DNA of 59,835 bases from Dimargaris cristalligena (lineage: Eukaryota), in assembly GCA_003614675.1 (NCBI GenBank), contig ML002246.1:1-59835 (forward strand). The letters are read 5' to 3'. A program made the position numbers and the translations under genes. Below, piece after piece: positions 1 through 58,030 of this stretch. The notes under the pieces were generated by a model, which saw only the letters and a program-made list of their open reading frames with translations, was not told the origin of the DNA and searched no databases. Position 1 is the first letter of the stretch, and each line of letters begins with the position of its first letter.

Positions 1-1300
1 CAAAGGATAGGTAATACTTGGGTAACTAATAAATTCAATGTAAAATAATAAAAGGAAAAAGGGAAAGGGAGAAAGCTATTTTTAAGTATACTTTAAATAG
101 GGGTACAGTTGGGGCAGGGGCAGTGTGAATGCAGGGGTATCATCCAGTCAGGGGTAGGGGTGCATTATAGTTAAGGGTATATAATATACTAATAGAAAAA
201 ATACTATACTAATAAAAATAGAGGAAAAATGACTATACTCATCAGGGGCAGGGGCAGGGGCTTATTCACTCATCAGGGGTGGACTTCCGATAAGTGTGAA
301 AAATAGATAAAAAATAAAAGTAGGTAAAAATATAGTAAGTTCACCACACTGGGCCCCAATCCCACAGACCCCATACAGTACCATATTGGGGACTATATCT
401 TGGTCCAAGTTCCCCATAGGCCCCTGTCCCTACAAGCCCCCTTTAAACGCCCCATTACTATTAAAGGCATCCATAGTAGTAATATATACACTATTACCCC
501 TGCAGTCTATGATAAACACCTCCCATAGGAGTGAGTATCTAGTAACCAGATTATTCTATTTGTCAAAGGCCTCAGTGATGAGGCTCCAGTAGGAGAGGGT
601 GATGTCAGCTTTTCTAATCCAGCTTAATCTAGATATAGTGATTATCTGTCCCTACTAGGCCTTATAGTACCATATTAACCTTCCCATGGTTACCCCTATC
701 ACTATGGGATCACCCTATATCACATAACTATTTCCCTTCTGGACTCCTTGGTTTACACTAATCACTCCTGGCCTGATCTGATGACTCTTCCAGTTCCCAA
801 TAGAGTCTTCCAAGCCCTCACAACTATCCAGCTGGCTTATTTATCATACCATCATCTTAGTAATATCCTCCTTCAGGGACCTCCCTTTAGAGTCACCCCC
901 CATGTATATATAACTGGGCCCCACTGGGACCAGTTCAAGCCTTAGCTTATTCTTACCCCCTAGTTTATCCTAATAAACTCTATATATACTCACCCCCCTT
1001 ATATTAACTAGTAAGTGTGCCCCCTGCACATCCCTAGCCTGAACCTGTATTTATAGCCTTTATTAGTTAGTACTATGCCCCTACCTAATGCTAGGACCTG
1101 TTTAGCTAAGTCTAAGCCCCATCTATTGTTAGAAGCCTACCCCTGGGACTCTTGATAAACTAAGAGTAGTTAACTTAGGTAACAAGTGGATTTCTCTTAG
1201 ATGTGACTGTAATATGATTGGGGCTTTGTCAAGGGAAAATCAACATCTAACCATTGCCTAATGAAATATGACACTTCTTGTTTAAAATAAAAAGGGGAAA
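1..1300. repeat. CpG-depleted, TA-rich degenerate repeat/transposon-like relic (family not identified; runs off the left edge)
   Basis: I counted only two CG dinucleotides (at 288 and 448) in the first ~1.3 kb, whereas CG is common from ~1320 onward. Reading frames are broken by many TAG/TAA stops. A short direct repeat ACTCATCAGGGG occurs at ~237 and ~268. No transposase or RT motif was recognised. Confidence 0.5.
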
Positions 1301-10591: not shown

Positions 10592-13500
10592 TTAGAGACG
10601 AGGGGCGGAAGGGCGGTCACCAGAGGAAGGATTCGAGCGGTTCATGCTACGCACGGATGGCGCGTAAGAATAACGGATCGAAAGGGAGGATTGGTGGTGC
10701 TGGGAGTAAGCAAACCCAGTATTGGGCTGCGATTTACCCGATTTCATAAAATAGAGCGTCTTCTCCTTGAGTTTATGCATGGCTGACCGGAACGGGCCGC
10801 GGTGCTTGGTGGTGCGCTGTCGGCGGATCGACGGGTGAAGCGAAGTGATTGTCGACATGCGCCGGAGTTGGTTAATCAGAGCAGGGTCGCTCTGTTCCCC
10901 CATATCGTCATCGGGATAGGCGGCGACAGAGGACCTACGGTCACCCCCACTAGCAGGGGACATATGGCTGAGGTGGGGCGAGTAACCAACCAGACCGGGC
11001 AACCCAACATGGGACCCGGGGGGTGTCGTACCCCGGTGAATCGAGATGGAGTCGGGGGTATCGGCCACCATGGCCTGCGGGGCAGTCAGCGGGATACACT
11101 GCGGGGACAAGGGCGCGGATTTCTTGCGGATCAGACTGTGAGCAGAGTGACCAACTGGTTCCCGGTCAGGGCCATTCGCTGTTGCACGACAGGAATCACG
11201 CACAGAGTCGGGAGTCGGGCTGGGGCGACTGTACAAGCGGCTGTAGAGGTGGACCACTTCGCGTACAATGTCCGCGTCGCTGGGGAAGAAGGTCTGACTG
11301 ATAAACTTGATGAAGAAGCGCGGCAACATGCAGAGAATGAGAACGATAGCCAGCACGAAGTAAAAGTTGCCCTGGGTGTAGATTTGCACGTCCATATGGT
11401 AAAGCGCCGAAACATCCAACTGGCAGTAAATGCCCAGGAACAGGGAGAGGGACAGTGTGCTCAAGGTCACCACGACCGGAATAATCCAGGTCCAGTTCAT
11501 CGTGTTAAGGGCCACGTAAAGGTTGGCGGCACAAACCACCCCAATCGAAATGATGGTACCCACTTCATTGAGCTCTGTGTCGTCGAGACCGGATGAGTGG
11601 GCCGAGGCAGTTAGATTATATACATAAAACGGGATCAGCACACAGACTAGCGACTGATAAATGCCGTCAAAGATGTGCATCCAGAATCGCCGCATATTGA
11701 ACTCGGTGCCCTTAATACCACCCATGTAGAGTTGAGGAACAGCCATGGACACATCCGCCGCGACGTCCTGGTCCAGGACTCCCAGAACCAGCACGGGGAT
11801 GGAGGTGAAGGCCAGGTTGTAAAACATCATAAGGGCGTAGTCGAACAAGAAGGTCAGGGAGAATCCGCACCAGAGCTGGAACCAGAACAGGGCAAAGGTC
11901 CAGATAATGTTCTTGTAGAAGAAGATCATAATCATGTTCGCCACCCGAATGTAGGACCACCGGCCATGCACTAGGAGTAGCTTCTGCAGGTACCGGAATT
12001 GGGCAATCGAGTAGTCACTAGCCAGGACGGCCTGCAAACCCTCCTCGCCCGCGATACCCACACCGATGTCGGCTTCCTGGATCATACTCACGTCGTTGGC
12101 ACCATCACCAATCGCCAGGCAGAGGACCTTGAGGTTCTGTTTGACGCACCGTACGACAAGAGCCTTCTGCAGGGGAGATACGCGGCAGCACACCACCGCT
12201 TCGCACATCTGGGCCACCTGGAGAAAGAGTTTTTCCAGGGCTGGCTCCAAGGCGTACTTGAGCGACTCGCCGTCAATGATGAGAGCCAGCGGCTTATTGT
12301 TGCCCTCGGCGTCCAAACCGGGCTCTTCTTCGACTCCGTGTGAAGGATTCAGGCCGGAGTGGATGCCACCACCCGAAGAGTGGCTCCCAGAGTACGGCCC
12401 ACGGATTCGCCCCTGTTCGAAACCGAACTTGTCCAGGGCTTCCTGCAGCTGAGTCTGCGTGGAGGTGGTATCTGTCCCCGTGACCACAATGAGCTGCATG
12501 CCCTCATGCAGGAGATTACATGAGAAACCAATATTGATGGCCGTTTCGGTCTTGTCACCGGTTAGTACCCAGATTTTGAGACCGGCGCAGGCAAGCTGGG
12601 CAATGGCTTCGGGAACACCATCCTGCAGACGATCCTCAATGGCAGTGCCGCCCACGAGGGTCAGGGAGTGTTCAATCTTTTCGGATACGTCATCAATGGC
12701 CTCCTCACGGCCATCCAGGAGATTGCAGGCCTCCATATAGTCGTGGGCCCACGCGTCGTACTCTTCGTCGGGGATGATGCGGTAGCCCAGGCATAGGGTA
12801 CGGAGACCGGTAGTAGCGAAGTACTTAAGGTGCTCCAGGGTAGTCTCCTTGACTTCGACCTGGCCCGCGCGTAAACGCTGGAAGATGATACTGTCGGCCC
12901 CTTTGGAGAAGAGCACGATGCGACCATCCGAGCGCTGCACAATGACCGACATACGCTTGCGAGTACTGTTGAACTCCAGCACATTCAGGAGCTTAAACTG
13001 CTGGGGTCGCCCCAGGAATTCACACCGGATAGTATCTTGCTCGCGCCCCAAGAAGGTGAAACCAGAGTTGCGGGCGGCCGAGACTAAAGCGGCCTCGTCG
13101 GGGGACTGGGCCTTGTAGATGATTTTGTTGGGGTTGTCCGGGTCGGGGCGCTCGGCAAGTACGGAATGGCACACGGCCAGAATGGTGAAGAATTCCACCA
13201 CCGCACGGGCCTGACCTCCGTCAGCGGCCAAGTGGCGAAACAATTTAACGTCGACAAAGGTCACGTCGTCGTGGTCAAAGTAGGGGTTGTCAAACATAGC
13301 CTGCATGTCGTGGAGCATGAGTGACTTGGTCTGATCAAAGGTGGGCTTGCCCGAGCCCCAGGGCAAGGACGGGTCGACAGGACTGCGCACGGAAATGTGG
13401 GACATATTCAAATGAGACTCGGATGTCGACACCTGCAGGGTCTGGTTGGGGGGGAAATTACCGTGGTCAATTATTCCGGATCGGGTGCTGGGGTCCTGCG

Positions 13501-15226
13501 AGGCTTGGCTGGAATTAAAAAATGCCGAAGGGGAAAGCAGGGCAGAACCCTGCTCATACACGGATGGATTGAGGGGTAACATCTCAGAGGTTTGGGCCTG
13601 GCCATCATCCTCATTCTCGTCGGCCGCCTCGGGGTCGAACAATTCGCCGTACACGGTACCACGGATCGAGCACTGACGGAACTCCATGACATTCTGGGTC
13701 AAGGTACCGGTCTTGTCGGAGAAGATGTACTGTACTTGGCCCAGGTCGTCCGAGATGTTCCAGGTCTTGGGCATACAGGGCCGGTCGAGTGGGGGGAAAT
13801 ACATATCCAGGTCACAGTAGATAAAGTAGGCCTGGATGGTCTTGACCAACTCGATACTGATGTACAGGGAGATGGGAACGATGTTCTGGAACAGAATAAG
13901 GCCGGACCAAAAGGTCAGAAATCCGACAAAGGCGGCATTGTCCGGGTCGGTATCGAAGTTGGTCTCGAACAACGTCTGGGAAGTCTCAGTTTGGGTGTAT
14001 AGGAATCCGCTAGAAATGGCGCAGAGCAGACACAAGATAAACAGCAGGACGAAGTTCAGGGCCACCTGAGTGTTCATGATCTTTTCGATGCGGCTACGCT
14101 TATTGGGGGTAACGCCACTGTTGAGCACAATCTTGGATTCGGGCCCGGTAAACAAGGCGAGACCGACAACATAGTCGGTATTGCGTAGAATACAGCCACG
14201 TAGAAGGATGTTGTCAATGGTAATGGGTTCAGCCCGGGGGACCTTGGGGAATTCGGGGGACTGGTTGGGGTCCACGCGATGGTTGTTGGTCATGCTACCC
14301 TTGAAACTGTACAGATTGGTATTGGGGGCTTCACAATCCACGGAGATTTCGGTAGAGCGCAGGTCGTCCACCGATTGCCAGGAGCTGGTGGAACCCATGG
14401 CCTGCCGTAGCTTGAGGTTGGTTTCACCGTCTAGGTTTTTGGTTTCAATAAAGCACAGGCCATCCTCGTCACTGGTACTGAGGATGAGTAAGTCGGCCGG
14501 AATATGCTGGTCATTGCGAACTAAGACGAAGTCCCCCACCTGGAGGGACCGCCAAAGAATCTTGGACCACTGGGAGGAGTGGTCCATCTCGCCCCCACCC
14601 ATGGCCAATTTCTCGTGTGAGGCGGCGACCTGGGAGGACCCGGGCGAGTCATCGGCGGGTCGGAGGGTAGATTTGGACCGATTAAGGACCGGGTAGGGCT
14701 GGGGCGCACCAGGTAGGCTGGACTGTACCCGTTGCAGGAAATTGAGTTTCAGGGTAGAACGTCTGGTGTTGAAGTTAGTCCACCTCCGTAGAATGAGGGT
14801 CTCGGCATTATTGACCTCGGCGTCGGACTGGTACCGCTTGTAATCTTCGTAACCGTCCTTGAGGGAGGTGACAAAAATGATAAAGCAGAGGGCTAGGGCA
14901 GACAGTCCGGCGGAGCCTTCGGCCACGGCCGGAATTAACTGCAGAATGATAAGGAATAAGAAGTATTGGTTAGCTACCCGACGGAACTGCTCAAACAGAT
15001 TTTTGGGAAGAAAGGTCAATAGGGTGTATTTGGTGGTGATGACCTCGTTGGGTACATAGGTCCGGAGGGGATTCCCATGGTCGTCCAAGTCCGAGGTGGG
15101 GAGTGGGAGATTGACAAAGAGACGTCGCTCGTAGCCAAGCGAAGCTTGTGCTTCGGTCTTCTCTGGGGAGTCGGCGGGCTTTCTCCGCCCCCACGATAGT
15201 ATCCGATCCCAAATACCGGGGACCAT
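10592..15226 (-). CDS. DNF1: P4-ATPase phospholipid flippase, Dnf1/Dnf2-like (intronless, 1544 aa)
   Basis: DGETNLK actuator motif, PISLY in TM4, WNISDDLGQVQYIFSDKTGTLTQN phosphorylation site, SPDEAALV, LTGDKTETAINIG, AIGDGANDVSMIQ, six C-terminal TM helices and a GFAYS tail motif. Confidence 0.95.
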   Translation of the reverse strand: MVPGIWDRILSWGRRKPADSPEKTEAQASLGYERRLFVNLPLPTSDLDDHGNPLRTYVPNEVITTKYTLLTFLPKNLFEQFRRVANQYFLFLIILQLIPAVAEGSAGLSALALCFIIFVTSLKDGYEDYKRYQSDAEVNNAETLILRRWTNFNTRRSTLKLNFLQRVQSSLPGAPQPYPVLNRSKSTLRPADDSPGSSQVAASHEKLAMGGGEMDHSSQWSKILWRSLQVGDFVLVRNDQHIPADLLILSTSDEDGLCFIETKNLDGETNLKLRQAMGSTSSWQSVDDLRSTEISVDCEAPNTNLYSFKGSMTNNHRVDPNQSPEFPKVPRAEPITIDNILLRGCILRNTDYVVGLALFTGPESKIVLNSGVTPNKRSRIEKIMNTQVALNFVLLFILCLLCAISSGFLYTQTETSQTLFETNFDTDPDNAAFVGFLTFWSGLILFQNIVPISLYISIELVKTIQAYFIYCDLDMYFPPLDRPCMPKTWNISDDLGQVQYIFSDKTGTLTQNVMEFRQCSIRGTVYGELFDPEAADENEDDGQAQTSEMLPLNPSVYEQGSALLSPSAFFNSSQASQDPSTRSGIIDHGNFPPNQTLQVSTSESHLNMSHISVRSPVDPSLPWGSGKPTFDQTKSLMLHDMQAMFDNPYFDHDDVTFVDVKLFRHLAADGGQARAVVEFFTILAVCHSVLAERPDPDNPNKIIYKAQSPDEAALVSAARNSGFTFLGREQDTIRCEFLGRPQQFKLLNVLEFNSTRKRMSVIVQRSDGRIVLFSKGADSIIFQRLRAGQVEVKETTLEHLKYFATTGLRTLCLGYRIIPDEEYDAWAHDYMEACNLLDGREEAIDDVSEKIEHSLTLVGGTAIEDRLQDGVPEAIAQLACAGLKIWVLTGDKTETAINIGFSCNLLHEGMQLIVVTGTDTTSTQTQLQEALDKFGFEQGRIRGPYSGSHSSGGGIHSGLNPSHGVEEEPGLDAEGNNKPLALIIDGESLKYALEPALEKLFLQVAQMCEAVVCCRVSPLQKALVVRCVKQNLKVLCLAIGDGANDVSMIQEADIGVGIAGEEGLQAVLASDYSIAQFRYLQKLLLVHGRWSYIRVANMIMIFFYKNIIWTFALFWFQLWCGFSLTFLFDYALMMFYNLAFTSIPVLVLGVLDQDVAADVSMAVPQLYMGGIKGTEFNMRRFWMHIFDGIYQSLVCVLIPFYVYNLTASAHSSGLDDTELNEVGTIISIGVVCAANLYVALNTMNWTWIIPVVVTLSTLSLSLFLGIYCQLDVSALYHMDVQIYTQGNFYFVLAIVLILCMLPRFFIKFISQTFFPSDADIVREVVHLYSRLYSRPSPTPDSVRDSCRATANGPDREPVGHSAHSLIRKKSAPLSPQCIPLTAPQAMVADTPDSISIHRGTTPPGSHVGLPGLVGYSPHLSHMSPASGGDRRSSVAAYPDDDMGEQSDPALINQLRRMSTITSLHPSIRRQRTTKHRGPFRSAMHKLKEKTLYFMKSGKSQPNTGFAYSQHHQSSLSIRYSYAPSVRSMNRSNPSSGDRPSAPRL

Positions 15227-30051: not shown

Positions 30052-31182
30052 CTACACAATGGCGCTGACGGTGGTCTGCTTCTCGGGGCACCGGCCTCCC
30101 CTGCACTTGCACTTCTTGCCCTTGACGGTGGTCGAAACAGTCTCGGCGCTGTTCGAGCTGCCATTGTTGGCTCCCGGAGCGGAGGGGCTAGTAGTAGTTT
30201 CAGGGTTCGCGGGAATTTCATTGTTTCTAATATCTTCAGTATCGCTACCCCCGGTGGTGGTGGGAGCGGAAGAGGCGGAAGCCAAAACCGAGGCTGAGGT
30301 CGAGGTCGAGGCCGCGGCAATGTTCGACGAGGAGCTAGTGTTGCCCGTGCTGGGAGTGACGGCCCCGTTGGCCCAAGTAGGGCGGCCACGGCTGGGCTCA
30401 ACATTATGGAAGGCGGGGTCGAGGGTAGCCTTCGATTCATCGGGGTCATGGGCGTTAGCAGGGACCTGACCACCGTAGGTGCATAGCTGGGTACTGTCAC
30501 ACTTCCAGAAGCGGCAGGTATCGCTGTTGGGTTCCATGATATCGCCACCGGTGAAGGCCACGGCGGGCTTGGCAGTGGTCTGCGCCGCACCGCCCTGGAT
30601 GGAGAAATCGGAACACGAGTAAAACTCGCCGAAAGCGGTATCCTTTTCGCCAAACACGATACCGCCACCGTGCCAGAGCCACTGGATGGTGTACTTGCCG
30701 TCGGCCAAGTTCGAGGGCATCTTAATCTTGGTGTAGCACGTGTCGGAACCGGAGCCGGTCAGAGGACCCCAGAAGTTGAGGTTGCTCGGGTCGGTGGCCC
30801 CGCAGTGGGCTTCGTAACACGACCCGCCAACGATATTGGATTTAAAAGCATCCCAACTATCGGACTGGTCAAAGGGCACGATGGCGAGGCGCACGAAACC
30901 GCCGGGGTGGTTGAGCCGCTTCCAGCTCACGGTCACCTCGGAGTCGCGGGTATAGATGGGCTTGGGCATATTCCAGTTCACGGCCGACTTGACGTCGTCA
31001 CAGGGGCCCTTACAGCCCTGGCCCACACCGCAGGTGCCGTAGAACTCCAGGTTGCCACGGGACCCGGCGGTGCCGGGACTACCCGCCACTCCGTTGCCGG
31101 AAATTTGGTAGAGCATACCATGGCCTTCGGTGCCACTGAGGGCGAGGGCGGCCAGGCCGAAAAGCGTAAATAAATGATTCAT
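30052..31182 (-). CDS. Secreted His-brace copper protein, lytic polysaccharide monooxygenase-like (paralog A), with S/T-rich linker and basic Cys tail
   Basis: Signal peptide MNHLFTLFGLAALALSGTEG followed by His21. Second His in WKRLNHPGGFVRLAIVP. YTIQWLW...GEFYSCSDFSI resembles the terminal strands of LPMO folds (QWxW...FYxCxD). Single exon. Confidence 0.75.
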   Translation of the reverse strand: MNHLFTLFGLAALALSGTEGHGMLYQISGNGVAGSPGTAGSRGNLEFYGTCGVGQGCKGPCDDVKSAVNWNMPKPIYTRDSEVTVSWKRLNHPGGFVRLAIVPFDQSDSWDAFKSNIVGGSCYEAHCGATDPSNLNFWGPLTGSGSDTCYTKIKMPSNLADGKYTIQWLWHGGGIVFGEKDTAFGEFYSCSDFSIQGGAAQTTAKPAVAFTGGDIMEPNSDTCRFWKCDSTQLCTYGGQVPANAHDPDESKATLDPAFHNVEPSRGRPTWANGAVTPSTGNTSSSSNIAAASTSTSASVLASASSAPTTTGGSDTEDIRNNEIPANPETTTSPSAPGANNGSSNSAETVSTTVKGKKCKCRGGRCPEKQTTVSAIV

Positions 31183-34100
31183 CGTTGGATAATATTATAA
31201 GATTATAAGAGGATGGATTCAAGTAAAAGGATTAGTAGATAATACCCGTATTAAAGTTACTGATAATGTTGTGGCCGTGGGTCGTAGACAAGTGGCCCAA
31301 GCGAAATTAATAATTGCAAACACGCAGAGAAAGAGAGAAGCACAGGTACACGCAGTGTACAGTGAAAGGTAGTGGGCGGCAGGCTACAGAAGTAAGAAAT
31401 AGAGAATAGAAGGAGTGGCTAAGAACAAAAGCAGCTCTTATTATAACCAGTTGGGTTGAAACAAAAAGGTTCAATAATGGAACTAAATAAGATTGTAAAT
31501 AACGTAACAAGAAGATAATCGACTAGCGATAGGACTTCCGAGATGAGGAAAAGATAATAAAGAGGTCTTGGTGGGCAACACTAGAGTTGCTTAAAGTAAG
31601 TAATATAGTTTAATGACACGCGATAAAGGGAAAACACCAAGTAACTAATTGGGGGTGGGTGGGATGCGGGCTACTTATATACCCAAGCCACACGCCACTA
31701 ATGAGGGGCGGCGAATTCCAATGCTGCCCCTATTAAGGATTGCCCATGACCTATAGCCTCACCTCCAATTAAACATGGGAGCCGACAGCGGGCGGGAAGT
31801 GGTCAGTCCATAATTAGAAGCTAGCTCGACAAGGAAAGGGGAGATGGGAGGGGGATTGCCTCACCAGTAACCAGGCCGGATTTTCCCTTCAACCTTATGT
31901 TCCATCTACCTCGTCTCTTTCTCCTCTTTCCTCCATTCCCCCCTTTTCGACCCGTCCCCCTCACCTAGGAATTTGTATTATGTGTCTTTGGATTAGCCGG
32001 CCCCATAAAGTGAGGAGGGGTTACTAAAATGGCCGTTGTGAAGTAAAATATTGGGCAACACACCAAAGTGCAAAAAAAGGGGGGAGGAACAATAAGGGGA
32101 TTAGTAAAGGAGAAGCTATGTGAGTGAGTGAGTGAGAGTATACTATTGAATGAGGAAAGATGGCAATGAATGCCCATATTGGCCATAGCTGGGACCAGCC
32201 GGAGAAGGAGAGTCGGCGGGGGGCGACAATCCATGACGTGCCCTCTAGGTCGCTCATTTTCGGACCTCATTAGCCGGTTACATTCCTTTTGAGCAGAGGG
32301 GAGAACCTTGTGCTTGTGCTTTATGGTAATGCTGTTCTATTCTACTATGGCTTTGTTCGTTCTGTCGTATTGCCAATCACACCCACAAACACATATATAT
32401 ATATGAATGTATATATACACGTGCATACTGTCTCAATGGGTAATAATTGGTCCGGATTATTGGGTGGGCAGTCCCCCTCCCCCCAGCAGTAACAGCCAGT
32501 AATGCTAGCTAATGCAGGTCGCACCGATTGGTTTAGCCAACTGCAGCCACTCCCCGCCCAGCAAAAATCCCGGCATGGAATTTCCGCCATTTTGCCTTGT
32601 CCGCATTTCGGTGTAAGCGGCTATTGGTGAGTGTGCGCAGTCGACCGGTGAATTTCTCTCCCCCCCCTCCTACTGTAATATAGAGCAGGTGGTTTGTGTG
32701 TCATGGTTAAAAGAATTTAGGGGAGACTAGGAAAGGCATAGAAAACACTGGGGCACGGCGTTATAATATTGCGATTCAAGTGGGTGAGATTCCATCCAAC
32801 CCTTGTAAATGGCTCGCCTGTGGTCACACTCTGCCAATGGAGAGGGCGGAGTGAAATTCGAAGCGAAAGGTGAGTGTGAGGGCTATAGAGAGGAGGGCGA
32901 ATCATGATTTGCGCCCATCATGTCACTCCTTCTCTCGTTCGGCTGGTCTCGCGTTGTCGGTGACTCGGCCAGGTCATTTTTACTATTATTGCTCTAGCCC
33001 ACTTGTATGGGGGGTATGGCTCTTACCCGTGCCAATCACCACACTACTCTATGATTATTATGATTCCAGTTGGGCTGCTTCACTAGTTATTGTATTATTA
33101 TTATTATTATTATTATTTGGGGGAGGGGGCTAATCTGCCGCGAGGTACCAGAATGTACACCCCCCATTACTACTGACCAGTGTGAATTAGCGAGGCACTC
33201 TAATTGGTGTGGCCTTTATTACTATCGCTTTGTAATAAGTAAAATGAGAGAAGGGGGGGGAATAACCCTACTATATTATACACATCTGCCCCATCTATCC
33301 ATTGTGAGTTGGGCATTCACTGGCTATCCAATGGGGCGCCCCTTAGACATGCGACCTGGGCCAGCCAGAGAGGTACCTACCCGTGGCACTCTTCTTCTAA
33401 GTCGACTGAATTGTTCCGGCCCAATTAAAACACACCCGCTATCTCTATCTATAATCGGGGCCAATGGTGGTCCCCCGTCCGACCGTTAAGTCCATATATC
33501 TGCTTTCCAATAGCCCGATTCAAGTTGACGGGGGGCTATTAACCGCCAAGAGTATGATGGGTAGAGGGAGAGAATAGCTGTCGACGAGTCACCATCGTTT
33601 CTCAGTCCCAGGTGTGTACCACACCACACCGCCCTGTGCACCCTTGCTACCAGGCGAATCAGCCGAAAATTGCCACTATATGGCAGCCCGGCTCGAATTC
33701 AGTGCACTAGGGCCAGGGTTAAAAAAGGTGTACCACAATGTAAAACCACCTGATTATGGAGAGAAATAATGCCGCCCCTAGTATTATAGTCAAAATGTTA
33801 TCGACCCCTTCGTCTACTCAACGTGCCACACACACACACACACACCCCTTGATGACGATGGCCCGTATTACCGTCGTATCTCCCAATGGTACCACCAGTG
33901 CGGCCATTAATTATCCGTCGACCCTGCGGGATTGGTCATGATATCTACTAAGCACTAAATGACAACATTATTGTTGGAAATTCATTTCCCCCGTCTCACC
34001 AATTCCTTTACTATGATTGGCTCGTCCTATACTCGGGACTATATTCAAATATTTACTATATCATTCTATACCCGGGACTTCGTCCTAGTCATTATTACTA

Positions 34101-35044
34101 CTAATTCCAACTCAATAAAACCTACCGCGGGCATCTAGCCTTGCCCCTTGCGGTTCTTTCTCTCTTCTTTAAAACATTTTAGTTGTATTAGAAGGTACTT
34201 GCGTTTACTATCAAATCCATATTTCCAACAATTACCCCATCTATATTAGTTAACAATTGGTAAGTGAAACGAAATAGAAGCACAGCTCCAAAGGTGGCGA
34301 AGGGATTGTCGGGTGACGTATTGCTGGTTGGATACTAATCCCGCTTCTTGATTCTTCTTATACGGTTTCCACTATGACTGCATCATGGCAATCGTCTTTA
34401 TTGACGGGATGTTCATATTTCAAGTAGTGCGATATCAATCATTTTCCCGCTGCAAATCGAGTGTGATTATACCCTCCATCACCAGGGCGATGGGTGATGT
34501 CGCCTAAACACCCACTGCCTTCCCCCCATCAGTCGCACATATCACACCAATCGAACCGTTGCTGCGGGGTCGTCATCCCCGGTGGCAGGACTCGGGCTGT
34601 GGTAGCTAGTATCAACCGGCGCAAGTGGAATACCTAAAATGAAATGTTTATTGAGGTGATCGTATAAACCCGCGCCAATGTCACTGAATAAAATAGATCA
34701 CGGGTTAACTGATAAGTAGTTTAGATGGTGGACTAAAATAGTTGCCTATAAGCTGAGAGGCAGACGCTAGTGCCACTGAACGTGTGGCAGTATTTAGAAA
34801 ATAGATATCAAATTATTACTATTTTTTAAATAAGAATAATAAAAGAAAAAAGAACTAGAAAACAGCTACTAAAGGCTCGTTTACGCTCAGTCGCTGCATA
34901 AACGGCGGAATAAAGGTCGGGCTAGAAGGCCCAACGTCCCATAGAGATATGGAAAGCCGTCCTAAGCTAAACCCAAACAAAAAACAAACACACGAACGGT
35001 CCCAGTGAGCTGGATGCGATTGGGCCAATGCTCTGGGTAGATAG

Positions 35045-35067
35045 GTAGTAGTAGTAGTAGTAGTAGT
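35045..35067. repeat. (GTA)n microsatellite just downstream of LPMO-like paralog B
   Basis: Direct reading of the sequence. Confidence 0.85.
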
Positions 35068-35105
35068 CGCCGGTAGTCCGGGGGGATTTCTAGTATAGAC
35101 AGAGG

Positions 35106-35888
35106 CTAGAACCCAGCGGGTTTACCCGTCATGGATTTGCCACGCGCACAAGGTTCCAACGATTCGCTCAAGAGATCGCCGGACTTGGGGGAAGGCATAC
35201 GGCCAGCAAAACTACATACACCGACTTGGTTAGACGACCAGTATTTACACACGTTGCTGGTAGGGTTCGAGTAATCCTTACCCTCGAATACGGGTGCCAC
35301 TTTCCCAACGGCAGTCGGCGTCGTGCCACCCTTTACTACAATGTCGGCACAATTGTAGTACTCTCCGAACCCGGCCTCAGGCTGCGCGTAATACACCCCT
35401 CCACCGTACCATATCCACTGCAAGGTCACCACCGTTTCATCTTTATAAAACGCCGGCACTTCCACCTCGGTCCAGCAGTCTCCCCCTCCTACCCCATTAC
35501 CGTACCCGAATTCGTCCGGCTTACCCGGGTCGGGTCCGCAGTGCGACTCGTAGCACGAATGTTTGAGTACGTTGGTATTAAAATCGTCCCAACTGTCCGA
35601 TTTTTCAATGGGCACGAGGGCCAGGCGGACAAATCCGCCGGGATGGTTCGCGCGTTTCCACTGGACCTTCAGTTTCTGGCCGCGCGCCACGTACACTTTT
35701 TGGTAGCCCAGGTCGTTGATGCGGGTGGCGCTACGGAGGGATTCACACGGTCCCTTGCAGCCAAGTCCCGCACCGCAGGTAGCGGTTCTGGGCCCGTTGC
35801 TGCGAGGTATCGGATACCCGAGTTGGCTATGGGCGACCGTCAAAGTAAGACCCGCGAGAAGGGTTAAGAGGCGGGGAATGGTCCACAT
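35106..35888 (-). CDS. Secreted His-brace copper protein, LPMO-like (paralog B, no linker)
   Basis: ATG at 35888. Signal peptide MWTIPRLLTLLAGLTLTVA followed by HSQLGYPIPR (His1..PxPR, typical of LPMO N-termini). Also WKRANHPGGFVRLALVP and LQWIWYGGG..FGEYYNCADIVV. Clearly homologous to 30052-31182. Confidence 0.78.
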   Translation of the reverse strand: MWTIPRLLTLLAGLTLTVAHSQLGYPIPRSNGPRTATCGAGLGCKGPCESLRSATRINDLGYQKVYVARGQKLKVQWKRANHPGGFVRLALVPIEKSDSWDDFNTNVLKHSCYESHCGPDPGKPDEFGYGNGVGGGDCWTEVEVPAFYKDETVVTLQWIWYGGGVYYAQPEAGFGEYYNCADIVVKGGTTPTAVGKVAPVFEGKDYSNPTSNVCKYWSSNQVGVCSFAGRMPSPKSGDLLSESLEPCARGKSMTGKPAGF

Positions 35889-53713: not shown

Positions 53714-55452
53714 TCACTCAAATTTGCCAACAACTACTCGACAGTGTTCCCCAGTAGCATGGACAGTAACAAGGTCACCGACTGTAATAACTTGGCCTAG
53801 TCATTAGATAGTTATCCAGAGATGCATAATATAATAATCAAATGGAAATGTCGTGAGGGTTTTGATTTAAATGTGTGAATTGGTCGGCTGAACTCTCCAG
53901 GCCGGTCTCTATAGATACGTATACATATATATATATCCATCAAAGGGGCAAAGCAATCAAGAGCAGTACTTACCTGTGCGAACGGGGACGCAGTTCATAC
54001 CGAAACAGCCTCGGTATTTATCACCAGGGTCCACCCGTCGGTAATTCACCAAAGTCTTCAACGGTTGGTGTTCCAAACTGGCAATTCCCGTATCGGGGTT
54101 ATTATTGGTCATGGGGCAGCGGGTGCAGCGCGAAGTCACCATCAGAGTGACTGCCGATGGAGCAGACGTACTCGCATTCGTATCCGCATCGACGGTTATT
54201 TTTTCTTCGCTACTCGAAATGGGTGGGGTAATCTTTCTCGCCAGTGCGCCCGCCTTAATCGAAATGCGGTGCCAAGTATCTTCCTCAAAGGGTGCAATAC
54301 CATCGACCATAATATTAGGCCGAAAGCGCCGGATATCAATCGGCGTCGGCAGGTGTTGATTCACATCCACCAGCGATGCTTCGGACGCCAACAGAATCGG
54401 CGAGTCATTGCTGAACATCACTCGCCCGGGCCATTGCGGGGGAGGAGGTGTCGTCGTAGAGTGGGATGCGCTACTGGGTGCGAAATACGAGAAAATACTA
54501 CGCCAGCCGCCCACTGGCCTGGGTGGAAGTGTCGTAGCAGCGGGGTCACGGTTGCTACTACCGCTATCATTATCATCCTCAGGACTTGCTAGGGCTTGTT
54601 GTACCTGCTCGGCCGTGGGTGGACATGTCTTGGTCGCTCGCTTACCCTGGTCAAGGATATAGCGCACCAGGCGGACTCGGCGACCTAAAAAAGTGGATAA
54701 CCAGTCCGCCACTTCATCCCCCTCATCGTAGGCGGGGGTATCGTCGCCCCATACGTGGACTTGGACCTTCTTCAATCCCGCTAATTCCACCTCAGTTGGG
54801 TGTAGAGGCAGTATCATGGATGAGGTTGTAGTAGTGGTAGTAGTAGCGGGAGTGGTCAGCGATGTCGCTTCCGGGGCTTCATCCGTGGTTGGAGTAGCCG
54901 GAATGGTGAGGATAAGTTGGGGGGTGGTGGTATCTCCACTCTCGAGCTCCTCCATACCAACAGTTCCCTCCAAATGGAGACCGCATTGCAGCGCGGGGAT
55001 ACCGATGATTTTAGGCGTGACTAACGCTAAGCGCCCTTCCTTAATTTGGGTCACAAACTTGTACTTTTCGTCGGTGACCATCCATAGGCGGTCGTATTGG
55101 AAGCCGGCTGGTTTCATTAGGGTTTTTATGGAGTGGAGGGTGAGAGTATGGAACACATATGGGTAAACGAAGTCGGGATATAGGAAAGTGTGAGGGCGGG
55201 GTTAAGGCCTAATTGACTGGCGGATGCCGCTATTTTTCTATGGGGCATATTTGAGATAAAACGTACTTATTCACCATCCATTGAACACGGCTCGTTCTCC
55301 TCATACCATAATGCATTTAAAAAAACATATTGCGAAATATAGAACTACGGCGGCAGCGACTTACTTTCAATGAGAGTGGCCTGAGACACCGGTAGGCCGG
55401 CGCACGATTTGATCGGGTAGAGGAAAAGTCGACTAATTTGGATGGTGGCCAT
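53714..55452 (-). CDS. MOSC-domain molybdenum-cofactor protein (mARC/YcbX-like), copy 1
   Basis: Exons 55452-55365, 55107-53974, 53796-53714. Motifs: LFLYPIKSCAG, GFQYDRLWMV, YDEGDEVADWLSTFLGRRVRLV, RRFRPNIMVDG, PFEEDTW, RCTRC, YRRVD, FGMN. Confidence 0.92.
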
Positions 55453-56284: not shown

Positions 56285-58030
56285 TTAAACAATCTCTACA
56301 CGACGGTGTTCCCCAGTGGTTTGGACAGATACGATATCCCCTACGGAAATAACCTGGCCTAAGGATATTAAAAGTGCCATTTTTGGATGCCGGAATGGTA
56401 ATGGAGGAGGAATAAGTATATAAACTTAAGTTAGCCGTGAGTCATGAGCGCGGCTATATAAACATTGCGATAAACCCTACATGAATCAGTCTTTTATAGA
56501 GCCACTTACCAACGCGGATCGGAACACAGTTCATACCGAAGCATCCCCGGTATTTGTCACCGGGGTCTACCCGTCGGTAGCTCGCCAGGGTTCTCAGCGG
56601 CTGGTGAGTAGGCCTTGCCACACCCGTATCAGGATCCGTATTAGTTAACACGCAGCGACTGCAGCGGGACGTGACCAGTAGCGGGGTGGTGGGCCCGTGT
56701 TGCTCCGGCCCGGCAGCAGCTACCCGCCGCTGGTGCTCAGAAGGCGGGGATGTAGATGAGGATGAGGAAGAGTCGGGGGAAATAGTAATCTGCCGCCACG
56801 TTTCCTCGATAAAAGGCGGCATCCCGGCTACGGGGCTGTGCTTAGGGTCTTCCGGCGGGGAGGCCCCGGGGCCTACTAGAATACTGGGGCGAAAGGTCCG
56901 GATATCTACAGGTACGGGGAGCCGTTGGTTCAAGTTGGCTAGGGAGGCCTCCGATGCTAGTAAAAAGGGGGCTTCATCGGTCAGACTAATCCGGCCCGGC
57001 CACTGAGGCGGCGGAGGAGGAGGAGGGACCTTCATTGATAAATGGGGAGGGTCCCCCTCGGAGGCCGCAGCCACCTGAACCGCCCGTTGGACTTCGGCTT
57101 GGGACGGCGGACAAATAATCATCCGCCTTTGACCTTGCTCCACGGCATAGCGCACCAGACGTACTGGCCGTTCCAGGAAAGTAGAGAGCCACCGGGCTAC
57201 TTCGTTGCCTTCATCGTAAGCCGGTACAAGGTCTCCCCACACGTCGGCATGCACCAGGGACAGACCTGCTAGGTGGCCGGGGGAGGGGTGTAGCGGAATC
57301 GACACTGTCGTTGGGAGAGAGGGCGAGCCCGAGTCGCTATTGCCACCCGGCCCAGTCCCTGCCGATATAATAAACCGGGCGCCTTCCATAGCCTTTGGGC
57401 CAGTGGAGTCGGGAACTCTTGAGTCATTAGGGGCCGCAGATGTCATTGAAAGGGTAGGCTGGATAAGTACCAACCGTCCCAATTGGCGCTGCGTCAGGAA
57501 CTTGTAATCCTTGTCCGTAACCATCCACTGACGATCGTACTGAAACCCGGCTACGGTAGTGATACGAGTATGGGTTTTGGGCAAAGCACCAACAAAGACC
57601 AGGCAAGCGGTAATATTAGCCGAAAAGTTCATGATAATTGGAGGTGAGATTTACGCAAAATATACGAGGGTTGGCCCAGAAGAGCTGAATTATCGGTGCC
57701 GACTAAGTCTGAGTATTGCATAAAGACCCTGGCCACTTCAGGGTTCTTCTCTAAAGGGTTCATATGAGCCCGAATTTCATCAACAGGTTCCTTCATGGTA
57801 GCATTCGCCATGTAAATCGATGGCCTCGAATATCTCTGAGATATACTATCCATATGACCTCTATTAGTTTTATCAATATCCATACGGGACTCTCTCTCTC
57901 TCTCTCTCTCAAGGCTAAAAGCAAACACACCGGCGGACTTACTTTCGGTGACAGTGGCACGGCTAACCGGGATACCGGCGCATGACTTGACGGGGTAGAG
58001 GTAGAGTTGGCTTACCCTAATAGAAACCAC
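56285..58030 (-). CDS. MOSC-domain molybdenum-cofactor protein (mARC/YcbX-like), copy 2; start codon uncertain (GTG at the position of the paralog's ATG)
   Basis: Exons 58030-57943, 57550-56510, 56358-56285, with the same intron positions as copy 1. Motifs: LYLYPVKSCAG, GFQYDRQWMV, RTFRPSILV, PFIEETW, RCSRC, YRRVDPGDKYRGCFGMN. Confidence 0.85.

Follow-up and report, generated by a model that had tools for sequence, protein, structure and literature searches.

A gene pair in Dimargaris cristalligena encodes secreted LPMO-like proteins of a divergent, probably chitin-active clade

Introduction

Lytic polysaccharide monooxygenases (LPMOs) of the auxiliary activity (AA) families AA9-11 and AA13-17 share an immunoglobulin-like beta-sandwich fold, and the X325 proteins are set apart by an additional Asp that ligates the copper. 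Here we describe two genes of the fungus Dimargaris cristalligena, A and B, whose products resemble these proteins. They lie on contig ML002246.1 of assembly GCA_003614675.1, of which positions 1 to 59,835 were analysed (forward strand; this whole stretch is called the window below). An earlier note on this DNA, made from the letters alone, had read the pair as histidine-brace proteins that may form an uncharacterised LPMO clade. We consider it probable, though well short of secure, that A and B are secreted mono-copper proteins of the LPMO superfamily, that they belong to a clade of family rank and that this clade acts on chitin.

The described AA11 enzymes (AoAA11, 4MAH/4MAI; AfAA11A, 7P3U; AfAA11B, 9EXJ) share with A and B a fungal origin, secretion, a His1 directly after the leader and a second His in H-x-G-G. 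Further shared features are a W-x-W strand, a conserved Cys that follows the axial Tyr by three residues and a G-G behind the last strand, and chitin is the likely substrate of the clade as it is of AA11. In AfAA11B the copper site consists of His1, His61 and Tyr141, with Glu139 in the second sphere; the excerpt of PMC12186267 calls the Tyr-Glu pair unique to AA11, and names Tyr-Gln as the pair of AA9 and Phe-Glu as that of the AA10s shown. The likeness of the clade to AA11 is, however, confined to a C-terminal block, in which Gly replaces the AA11 Glu. Its N-terminal half, with H-S-x-L-x-x-P-x-P-R-G-N, C-K-G-P-C and R-x-N-H-P-G-G-F-V-R, is unlike AA11, as is a conserved, Cys-containing C-terminal extension of ~70 residues that carries no X278 domain. 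AA11 is found mainly in Dikarya, whereas the clade occurs in early-diverging fungi and Amoebozoa.

Other families invite comparison as well. AA9 (PF03443) has the same fold, and structural alignments with it include the C-terminal extension (residues 20..260 of B and 21..272 of A); in the clade, however, the Gln of the Tyr-Gln pair has become Gly, and the accompanying modules are chitin-related, not CBM1. The AA15 enzyme TdAA15A (5MSZ) matches B as well as AA11 does, with an identity of 22% that is the highest among the matches listed. Chitin-active AA10s resemble A in having Phe at the axial position (AA10s as given in the excerpt of PMC12186267). AA10, AA15 and AA16 come under the Pfam model LPMO_10, which, unlike for those families, has no match on A or B.

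Results

Predicted folds of A and B

An AlphaFold model of B, computed with 26 aligned sequences as input, reached a mean predicted local distance difference test score (pLDDT) of 82.5 and a predicted template-modelling score (pTM) of 0.82. The model of A had a mean pLDDT of 71.6, with a core (residues 21-275) mostly above 80 and a tail (276-376) below 50. Foldseek searches of the PDB with the B model returned 28 matches at E ≤ 1e-3, and all were LPMOs among the matches listed. The best was AfAA11B (9exj, E 6.5e-6), with a template-modelling (TM) score of 0.43 by query and 0.56 by target.

We also aligned the models to 48,161 representative chains in a second structure search, independent of Foldseek. 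With B, the top 24 entries were of LPMO type, X325, fusolin and NIS1 among them, and the first unrelated row had a Z-score of 6.4 (Table 1). With A, the top 22 rows were of LPMO type, led by a Z-score of 10.1 for two AA9 chains, an AA15 and an AA11, and the alignments to AA9 and AA11 covered residues 21..273. In most rows residue 20 of the B model was the first to be aligned and was paired with residue 1 of the chain; residue 21 of A likewise paired with residue 1 of the solved enzymes. As modelled, the fold of A and B is LPMO-like, in line with the earlier note. In these comparisons of models, AA11, AA15, AA9, AA13, AA10 and X325 tie at Z ~9-11 with no solved family clearly closest, and the scores are well below those expected inside one family.

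Table 1. Solved chains matched by the AlphaFold model of B in the search of 48,161 representative chains
Chain	Family	Z-score	Root-mean-square deviation (Å)	Residues aligned
7p3u	AA11	10.9	3.1	156
5msz	AA15	10.8	3.7	147
4mai	AA11	10.3	3.8	162
4opb	AA13	9.8	2.9	141
5acf	AA9 (presumably; our own reading)	9.8	3.8	166
4oy7	AA10	9.4	3.0	139
6ibh	X325	9.2	3.3	129
7ze9	AA16	8.6	3.4	130
5no7	AA14	8.1	4.2	164

The presence of the Magnaporthe effector NIS1 among the structural matches (Z 7.3-7.4) raises the reading that A and B have an LPMO-like fold without copper and play a structural, chitin-binding or effector-type role, as with the NIS1-like effector fold. We find this very improbable. NIS1 scores below all the catalytic LPMO families, and both His residues and the aromatic residue are conserved across distant lineages, which is hard to explain without a copper site.

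Predicted copper-site residues and their conservation

All the motifs quoted in the earlier note are present in the two translations. A and B carry TCGVGQGCKGPC and TCGAGLGCKGPC, respectively, the second-His motifs NHPGGFVRLAIVP and NHPGGFVRLALVP, SDSWDAF and SDSWDDF, SCYEAHCG and SCYESHCG and, late in the domain, QWLWHGGG and QWIWYGGG followed by FGEFYSCSD and FGEYYNCAD. The leader of A (MNHLFTLFGLAALALSGTEG) runs directly into HG and that of B (MWTIPRLLTLLAGLTLTVA) into HS. Both satisfy the -3/-1 small-residue rule in a heuristic of our own, which asks for a hydrophobic core, small residues at -1 and -3 and a Met 14-40 residues upstream. A signal-peptide-like leader also directly precedes the aligned His in 144 of 154 Met-started relatives, and the residue at -1 is G, A, S, C or T in every one of the 154 with an aligned His. 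By this heuristic, the claim that His follows the signal peptide directly holds for the pair and for most of these relatives.

Column conservation was counted in 191 of the 237 family proteins collected, namely those with (N/T/H)-H-x-G-G; the other 46 were left out. Because this motif was the criterion of selection, conservation of the second His is not independent evidence. The first-His column held H in 158 rows, Q in 2 and a gap in 31. At the axial aromatic position, where B has Tyr and A has Phe, Y was found 157 times, F 24 times and W four times. Two residues before it, G prevailed (118 rows), followed by A (28), S (14), P (11) and T (5).

A profile of 26 family sequences aligned H20, H82 and Y177 of B with residues 1, 60 and 140 of AoAA11 (4mah; counted from the alignment). 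With a 106-sequence profile (A2) and 9exj, the W-x-W and Tyr columns of the family (W158/W160 and Y177 in B) fell on W129/W131 and Y141 of AfAA11B, and the axial Tyr was the only one of the three copper-site positions taken in by the A2 alignment to AA11. The same conserved Tyr column aligned with the axial Tyr of AA9. Opposite Glu139 of AfAA11B, and also opposite the Gln of AA9 (8b7p), the family has Gly, which is Gly175 in B and Gly185 in A. The clade thus lacks the Glu or Gln that stands two residues before the axial Tyr in AA11 and AA9, and its second copper sphere would therefore be built differently.

The LPMO-like histidine-brace reading proposed in the earlier note is well supported by predicted fold, alignment and conservation: the top structural matches are of LPMO type, the leader His falls on residue 1 of the solved enzymes, H20, H82 and Y177 fall on AA11 positions 1, 60 and 140, and these positions are conserved.

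Family models and sequence profiles

No Pfam model matched A at E ≤ 1, and none reached its cut-off on B, where BIM1-like_dom scored 20 bits against a cut-off of 27 (E 1e-3), with two weaker matches besides. NCBIfam gave nothing on A or B and no model above its cut-off on the six family proteins scanned. The AA9 model (cut-off 27.8 bits) had no match on A or B at E ≤ 1, and LPMO_10 (PF03067, cut-off 23 bits), a search suggested in the earlier note, had none on either. A phmmer search of all PDB sequences with A gave no match at E ≤ 1. Weak Pfam matches did appear among 26 relatives, with DUF7492 in 14, BIM1-like in 7, AA9 in 5 and LPMO_10 in 3 (the last at E ≤ 0.1, best E 2.1e-4; separately, LPMO_10 was found in 1 of 10, at 17.9 bits). 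Pfam was also run on 106 representatives of at least 300 amino acids among the 150 cluster matches listed. Ten of them matched the AA9 model at E ≤ 1e-3, and P0145, with 31 bits, exceeded its cut-off.

PF24320 (DUF7492), the most frequent of the weak matches, is uncharacterised and occurs in Zoopagomycota and Ascomycota; its matches fall on the W-x-W…Y-x-x-C block, and it is possibly a further LPMO-like family that has gone unrecognised. The term DUF7492 occurred in none of the papers covered by our literature search. Pfam matches to Orthopox_B11R, zf_CCCH_4, AtDEF-like, KASH and HTH_92 lay far under their cut-offs and were judged to be chance, and the NCBIfam model sce4755_fam was sub-threshold on one Basidiobolus relative (17 bits against a cut-off of 75). 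In the ESM Atlas the query protein's own cluster scored 0.97 and the next rows 0.86-0.89, which the tool itself rates as leads only.

The weak BIM1-like match bears on a second alternative, in which A and B would be non-catalytic copper binders of the X325/Bim1 type (PF20238; LaX325, 6IBH) that acquire or handle copper at the cell surface and cleave no polysaccharide. X325/Bim1 proteins share the histidine-brace fold with A and B, and LaX325 is among the structural matches of both (Z 9.2 for B, 8.0 for A). BIM1-like_dom is the sole Pfam match on B under E 0.01 and recurs weakly in 7 of the 26 relatives, the canonical second-sphere Glu/Gln is absent at the aligned position, and A, with a Ser/Thr-rich linker that resembles wall-associated proteins, is possibly a cell-surface protein. 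We nevertheless judge this alternative quite unlikely. The BIM1-like score on B stays under the 27-bit cut-off and A has none, and the C-termini (…GKPAGF in B, …EKQTTVSAIV in A) are by eye not of the hydrophobic glycosylphosphatidylinositol (GPI) type. Catalytic LPMO families match A and B structurally as well as X325 does or better, and the family domain is fused in relatives to the chitinase module GH18 and to CBM18 and CBM_2, which points to polysaccharide work.

Searched against the PDB, the 106-sequence profile found AA11 chains best (9exj, 32.2 bits, E 6.3e-7; 4mah, 28.9 bits; 7p3u, 28.6 bits), with AA9 chains next, led by 8b7p (25.7 bits). The 9exj match is partial (profile positions 122-198), and both AA11 and AA9 matches are confined to the C-terminal block. 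In the profile-to-PDB searches with 26 and 106 sequences, the AA16 chain 7ze9 was weak in both (E 0.0071 and 0.0043), and no AA10, AA13 or AA15 chain appeared at E ≤ 10 in either. A motif search for canonical AA11-type sequences found none among the 237 collected family proteins.

These matches could mean that A and B are divergent members of AA11, already classified and counted in tables of carbohydrate-active enzymes (CAZymes), and the novelty of the clade would then be gone. AA11 not only leads the sequence-profile matches but also supplies the top match of B in Foldseek and in the search of 48,161 chains. Excerpts of published surveys report AA11 genes in Dimargaris and other mycoparasites (PMC6784888), AA11 genes across Kickxellomycotina (PMC9866270) and an enrichment of AA11 in the secretomes of Zoopagomycota and Mortierellomycotina (PMC9391592). 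However, the 32-bit match involves that short run of profile positions alone and AA9 comes nearly equal, and in the structure search AA11 and AA15 are level for B (Z 10.9 and 10.8), as are AA11, AA9 and AA15 for A. In the clade of A and B, Tyr/Phe-Gly stands in place of the Tyr-Glu pair described for AA11 in the excerpt of PMC12186267. Furthermore, the excerpt of PMC6784888 places AA11 in mycoparasites only, whereas the clade is also present in non-mycoparasites discussed there, such as Linderina and Coemansia; as far as that excerpt goes, this argues that the CAZy team did not count the clade as AA11. Zoopagomycotina (Thamnocephalis, Piptocephalis) contributed none of 101 family matches, though an AA11 expansion in Thamnocephalis is reported in the same excerpt. 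On balance we regard membership in AA11 as unlikely, yet as an alternative to be taken seriously.

We think it more likely than not that the clade lies outside the named AA families, as judged against Pfam, NCBIfam and PDB chains. The mismatch to the AA9, AA11 and AA16 patterns pointed out in the earlier note is supported on three counts: no Pfam or NCBIfam model at its cut-off, no structural family that stands out and a Gly at the Glu/Gln position.

Relatives, domain fusions and substrate

A word-indexed protein search found 60 relatives from B and 101 from the 26-sequence profile, and all its named matches were early-diverging fungi. In all 101, the core lacks a precomputed Pfam domain. Within Dimargaritales, relatives occur in Tieghemiomyces and Dimargaris, and the best match of B is a protein of Tieghemiomyces parasiticus (60% identity). 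A is 54.7% identical over 380 amino acids to the Tieghemiomyces protein P0205 and 58.5% identical to a protein of Dimargaris xerosporica. Further relatives were found in Kickxellales (Coemansia, Linderina, Kickxella), Harpellales (Smittium, Furculomyces, Zancudomyces), Mortierellaceae, Entomophthoromycotina (Entomophthora, Conidiobolus, Basidiobolus, Massospora), chytrids (Rhizophlyctis, Borealophlyctis) and Blastocladiomycota (Paraphysoderma, Blastocladiella).

An exhaustive search of 1.84 billion representatives returned 345 clusters at E ≤ 1e-3, 129 of them at E ≤ 1e-10. Looking up 20 clusters by name added Dispira, Allomyces, Catenaria and the amoebozoan Nematostelium gracile. The Nematostelium protein, P0107, is a family member of 498 amino acids with two CBM18 stretches. 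The family thus extends beyond fungi, and, as this protein comes from a transcriptome, one or more of its members are transcribed.

In UniRef, several relatives are labelled 'Chitin-binding type-4 domain-containing protein' and two Rhizophlyctis proteins 'Lytic polysaccharide monooxygenase'. Since automated pipelines already give such names, recognition of the relatives as LPMO-like is not new. The interpretation in the earlier note is supported in part, for the LPMO-like reading and the mismatch to AA patterns. Three other relatives (P0028, P0031 and P0038) are named 'C3H1-type domain-containing protein' in UniRef. On these, zf_CCCH_4 reaches only E 0.087-1.1, over Cys-rich residues 40-51, and the name looks like an annotation artefact.

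Fusions to other domains were found in the 106 long representatives. Chitin_bind_1 (CBM18) occurred in five (best E 5.5e-17), Glyco_hydro_18 in two (E 5e-83) and CBM_2 in one; a plastocyanin/azurin-type Copper-bind domain occurred in one. Apart from AA9, the remaining Pfam matches were DUF7492 in four proteins and single ones to PKD, EGF, P-domain, PAN and CDC45. One metagenomic protein, P0152 (1515 amino acids), combines the family domain (residues 30-206) with Copper-bind (384-479) and GH18 (770-1138), and P0158 (985 amino acids) combines it with GH18 at 487-837. The plastocyanin-like domain of P0152 is a possible built-in electron donor for the LPMO-type domain.

Among the substrates named in the earlier note (chitin, chitosan or glucan), chitin gains support because relatives are fused to CBM18 and GH18, which is the sole evidence for chitin. 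By analogy with these relatives, A and B most likely act on chitin, which could belong to the wall of the fungus itself or to a host or prey organism.

Origin and architecture of the pair

A and B are co-oriented on the minus strand with a spacer of 3.9 kilobases (kb), and their proteins are 41% identical across 206 amino acids (BLASTP, E 3e-56), an E-value that excludes chance likeness. Both are colinear over their full length with homologues of similar size (B, for instance, with a 269-amino-acid Tieghemiomyces protein at 94% coverage), and because of this end-to-end colinearity the reading of both genes as intronless stands. In each gene, no other ATG lies between the upstream in-frame stop and the start codon. 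The description of the two genes as co-oriented, intronless paralogues about 4 kb apart is accordingly correct. A tblastn search of the whole window with both proteins found no copies other than A and B. In the gap between them (31183-35105), tblastn and the family hidden Markov model found no relic of a third copy, with nothing better than E 0.4. This gap has no open reading frame (ORF) longer than 101 amino acids. In Tieghemiomyces, three family genes with consecutive locus tags lie on one 72.7-kb contig; given this tandem trio, clustering of the genes is conserved.

We inferred a maximum-likelihood tree from 40 core domains (44 names had been chosen, of which four were absent from the core alignment). 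A fell into a Dimargaritales clade with Tieghemiomyces, Dispira and Dimargaris xerosporica (100/100), itself within a Kickxellomycotina clade (95/95). B grouped with another Tieghemiomyces protein and a Dimargaris verticillata protein (98/94). As A and B belong to separate Dimargaritales clades, the duplication is old and not recent.

The two proteins differ in architecture. B consists of the predicted catalytic domain alone, and A continues into a linker of 101 residues (276-376; 37% Ser+Thr) with a tail, KGKKCKCRGGRC…, that is kept in the Tieghemiomyces and Dimargaris xerosporica orthologues. Basic C-terminal tails are also seen in Rhizophlyctis and Linnemannia relatives. A possible role of the tail of A is attachment of the protein to an acidic polymer of the wall. 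The positions of all features are collected in Table 2.

Table 2. Coordinates of genes A and B and of their predicted features in the window
Feature	Position	Strand	Basis or remark
Gene A, secreted LPMO-like protein (predicted), 376 amino acids	30052..31182	-	ATG-to-stop ORF; stop codon 30052-30054
A, predicted signal peptide, residues 1-20	31123..31182	-	Hydrophobic leader, ends TEG, adjoins His21; heuristic
A, His21, predicted mature residue 1, first brace His	31120..31122	-	Aligns with residue 1 of AA9, AA11, AA13 and AA15 structures; codon checked
A, His92 in NHPGGFVRLAIVP, predicted second brace His	30907..30909	-	Invariant column in alignment A3; codon checked
A, Phe187, predicted axial aromatic position (FGEFYSCSD)	30622..30624	-	Family column alignment; codon checked
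A, predicted catalytic beta-sandwich domain and conserved C-terminal extension, residues 21-275	30358..31122	-	pLDDT mostly 80-97
A, predicted disordered Ser/Thr-rich linker leading to basic Cys-rich tail (KGKKCKCRGGRC...), residues 276-376	30055..30357	-	pLDDT <50; composition
Gene B, secreted LPMO-like protein (predicted), 260 amino acids	35106..35888	-	ATG-to-stop ORF; stop codon 35106-35108
B, predicted signal peptide, residues 1-19	35832..35888	-	Hydrophobic leader, ends TVA, adjoins His20; heuristic
B, His20, predicted mature residue 1	35829..35831	-	Aligns with His1 of AA11 4mah and residue 1 of most LPMO chains
B, His82 in NHPGGFVRLALVP, predicted second brace His	35643..35645	-	Aligns with His60 of AA11 4mah; invariant in alignment A1
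B, Tyr177, predicted axial aromatic (FGEYYNCAD)	35358..35360	-	Aligns with Tyr140 of 4mah
B, Gly175, at the position of Glu in AA11 and Gln in AA9	35364..35366	-	A2-profile alignments

Two further features of the window were noted. A second tandem pair consists of the ORFs 53957-55117 and 56454-57632, both on the minus strand and each with MOSC_N and MOSC, and an uninterrupted ORF of 1544 amino acids at 10592-15226 (minus strand) encodes a P4-type phospholipid-translocating ATPase (flippase).

Discussion

Taken together, the models and alignments suggest how A and B might work. Cleavage of the signal peptide would expose an N-terminal His (His21 in A, His20 in B), which would form a histidine brace with the His of the NHPGGF motif (His92 in A, His82 in B) and hold one copper, with Phe187 of A or Tyr177 of B as the aromatic residue below it. 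By family resemblance to LPMOs, Cu(I) with H2O2 or O2 would then oxidise a glycosidic carbon and nick the polysaccharide on the flat face of the beta-sandwich. To judge by the domain fusions of relatives, the chain attacked would most likely be chitin.

Several observations weigh against this picture. Z-scores of ~10 only moderately exceed the background of 7-8 quoted by the tool, and in B the model of the loop beside His1 is of low confidence (pLDDT 48 for residues 31-40). A lacks the conserved P-x-x-R of the family because an insertion of ~12 residues takes its place just after His1. Gly takes the place of the Glu/Gln by which AA9 and AA11 tune copper reactivity, and the excerpt of PMC12186267 describes histidine-brace proteins without peroxygenase activity; the clade could thus be a copper binder and not an enzyme. 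As regards chitin, a chitin- or cellulose-related module is present in just 8 of the 106 long relatives and on neither A nor B, and the neighbours of the pair in the window are housekeeping genes (Mago-binding, kinase-FHA, P4-ATPase, Ric8, FGGY and two MOSC genes).

The clade is old and about equally far from AA9, AA10, AA11, AA13, AA15 and X325. More tentatively, and with less than even confidence, we suggest that it represents an unnamed AA family of chitin-active LPMOs that predates the split of fungi and Amoebozoa, does without the Glu/Gln residue and is sometimes coupled to GH18 and a plastocyanin-like domain. No paper on the clade was found in the literature searched, which was uninformative on families AA18-AA21.

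To our knowledge, each new LPMO family so far has widened the known substrates, organisms or copper-site chemistry. Because the clade lies between AA9 and AA11 by sequence, is structurally equidistant and is spread over deep fungal branches, it could show an early form of fungal LPMO. The Gly at the second-sphere position would make the clade a natural experiment on the importance of the Glu/Gln, and the fusion of cupredoxin-like and GH18 domains in P0152 offers a concrete hypothesis for the physiological electron donor. The nearest relatives of A and B belong to mycoparasitic Dimargaritales, and the target of the pair could be the wall of the host or that of the fungus itself.

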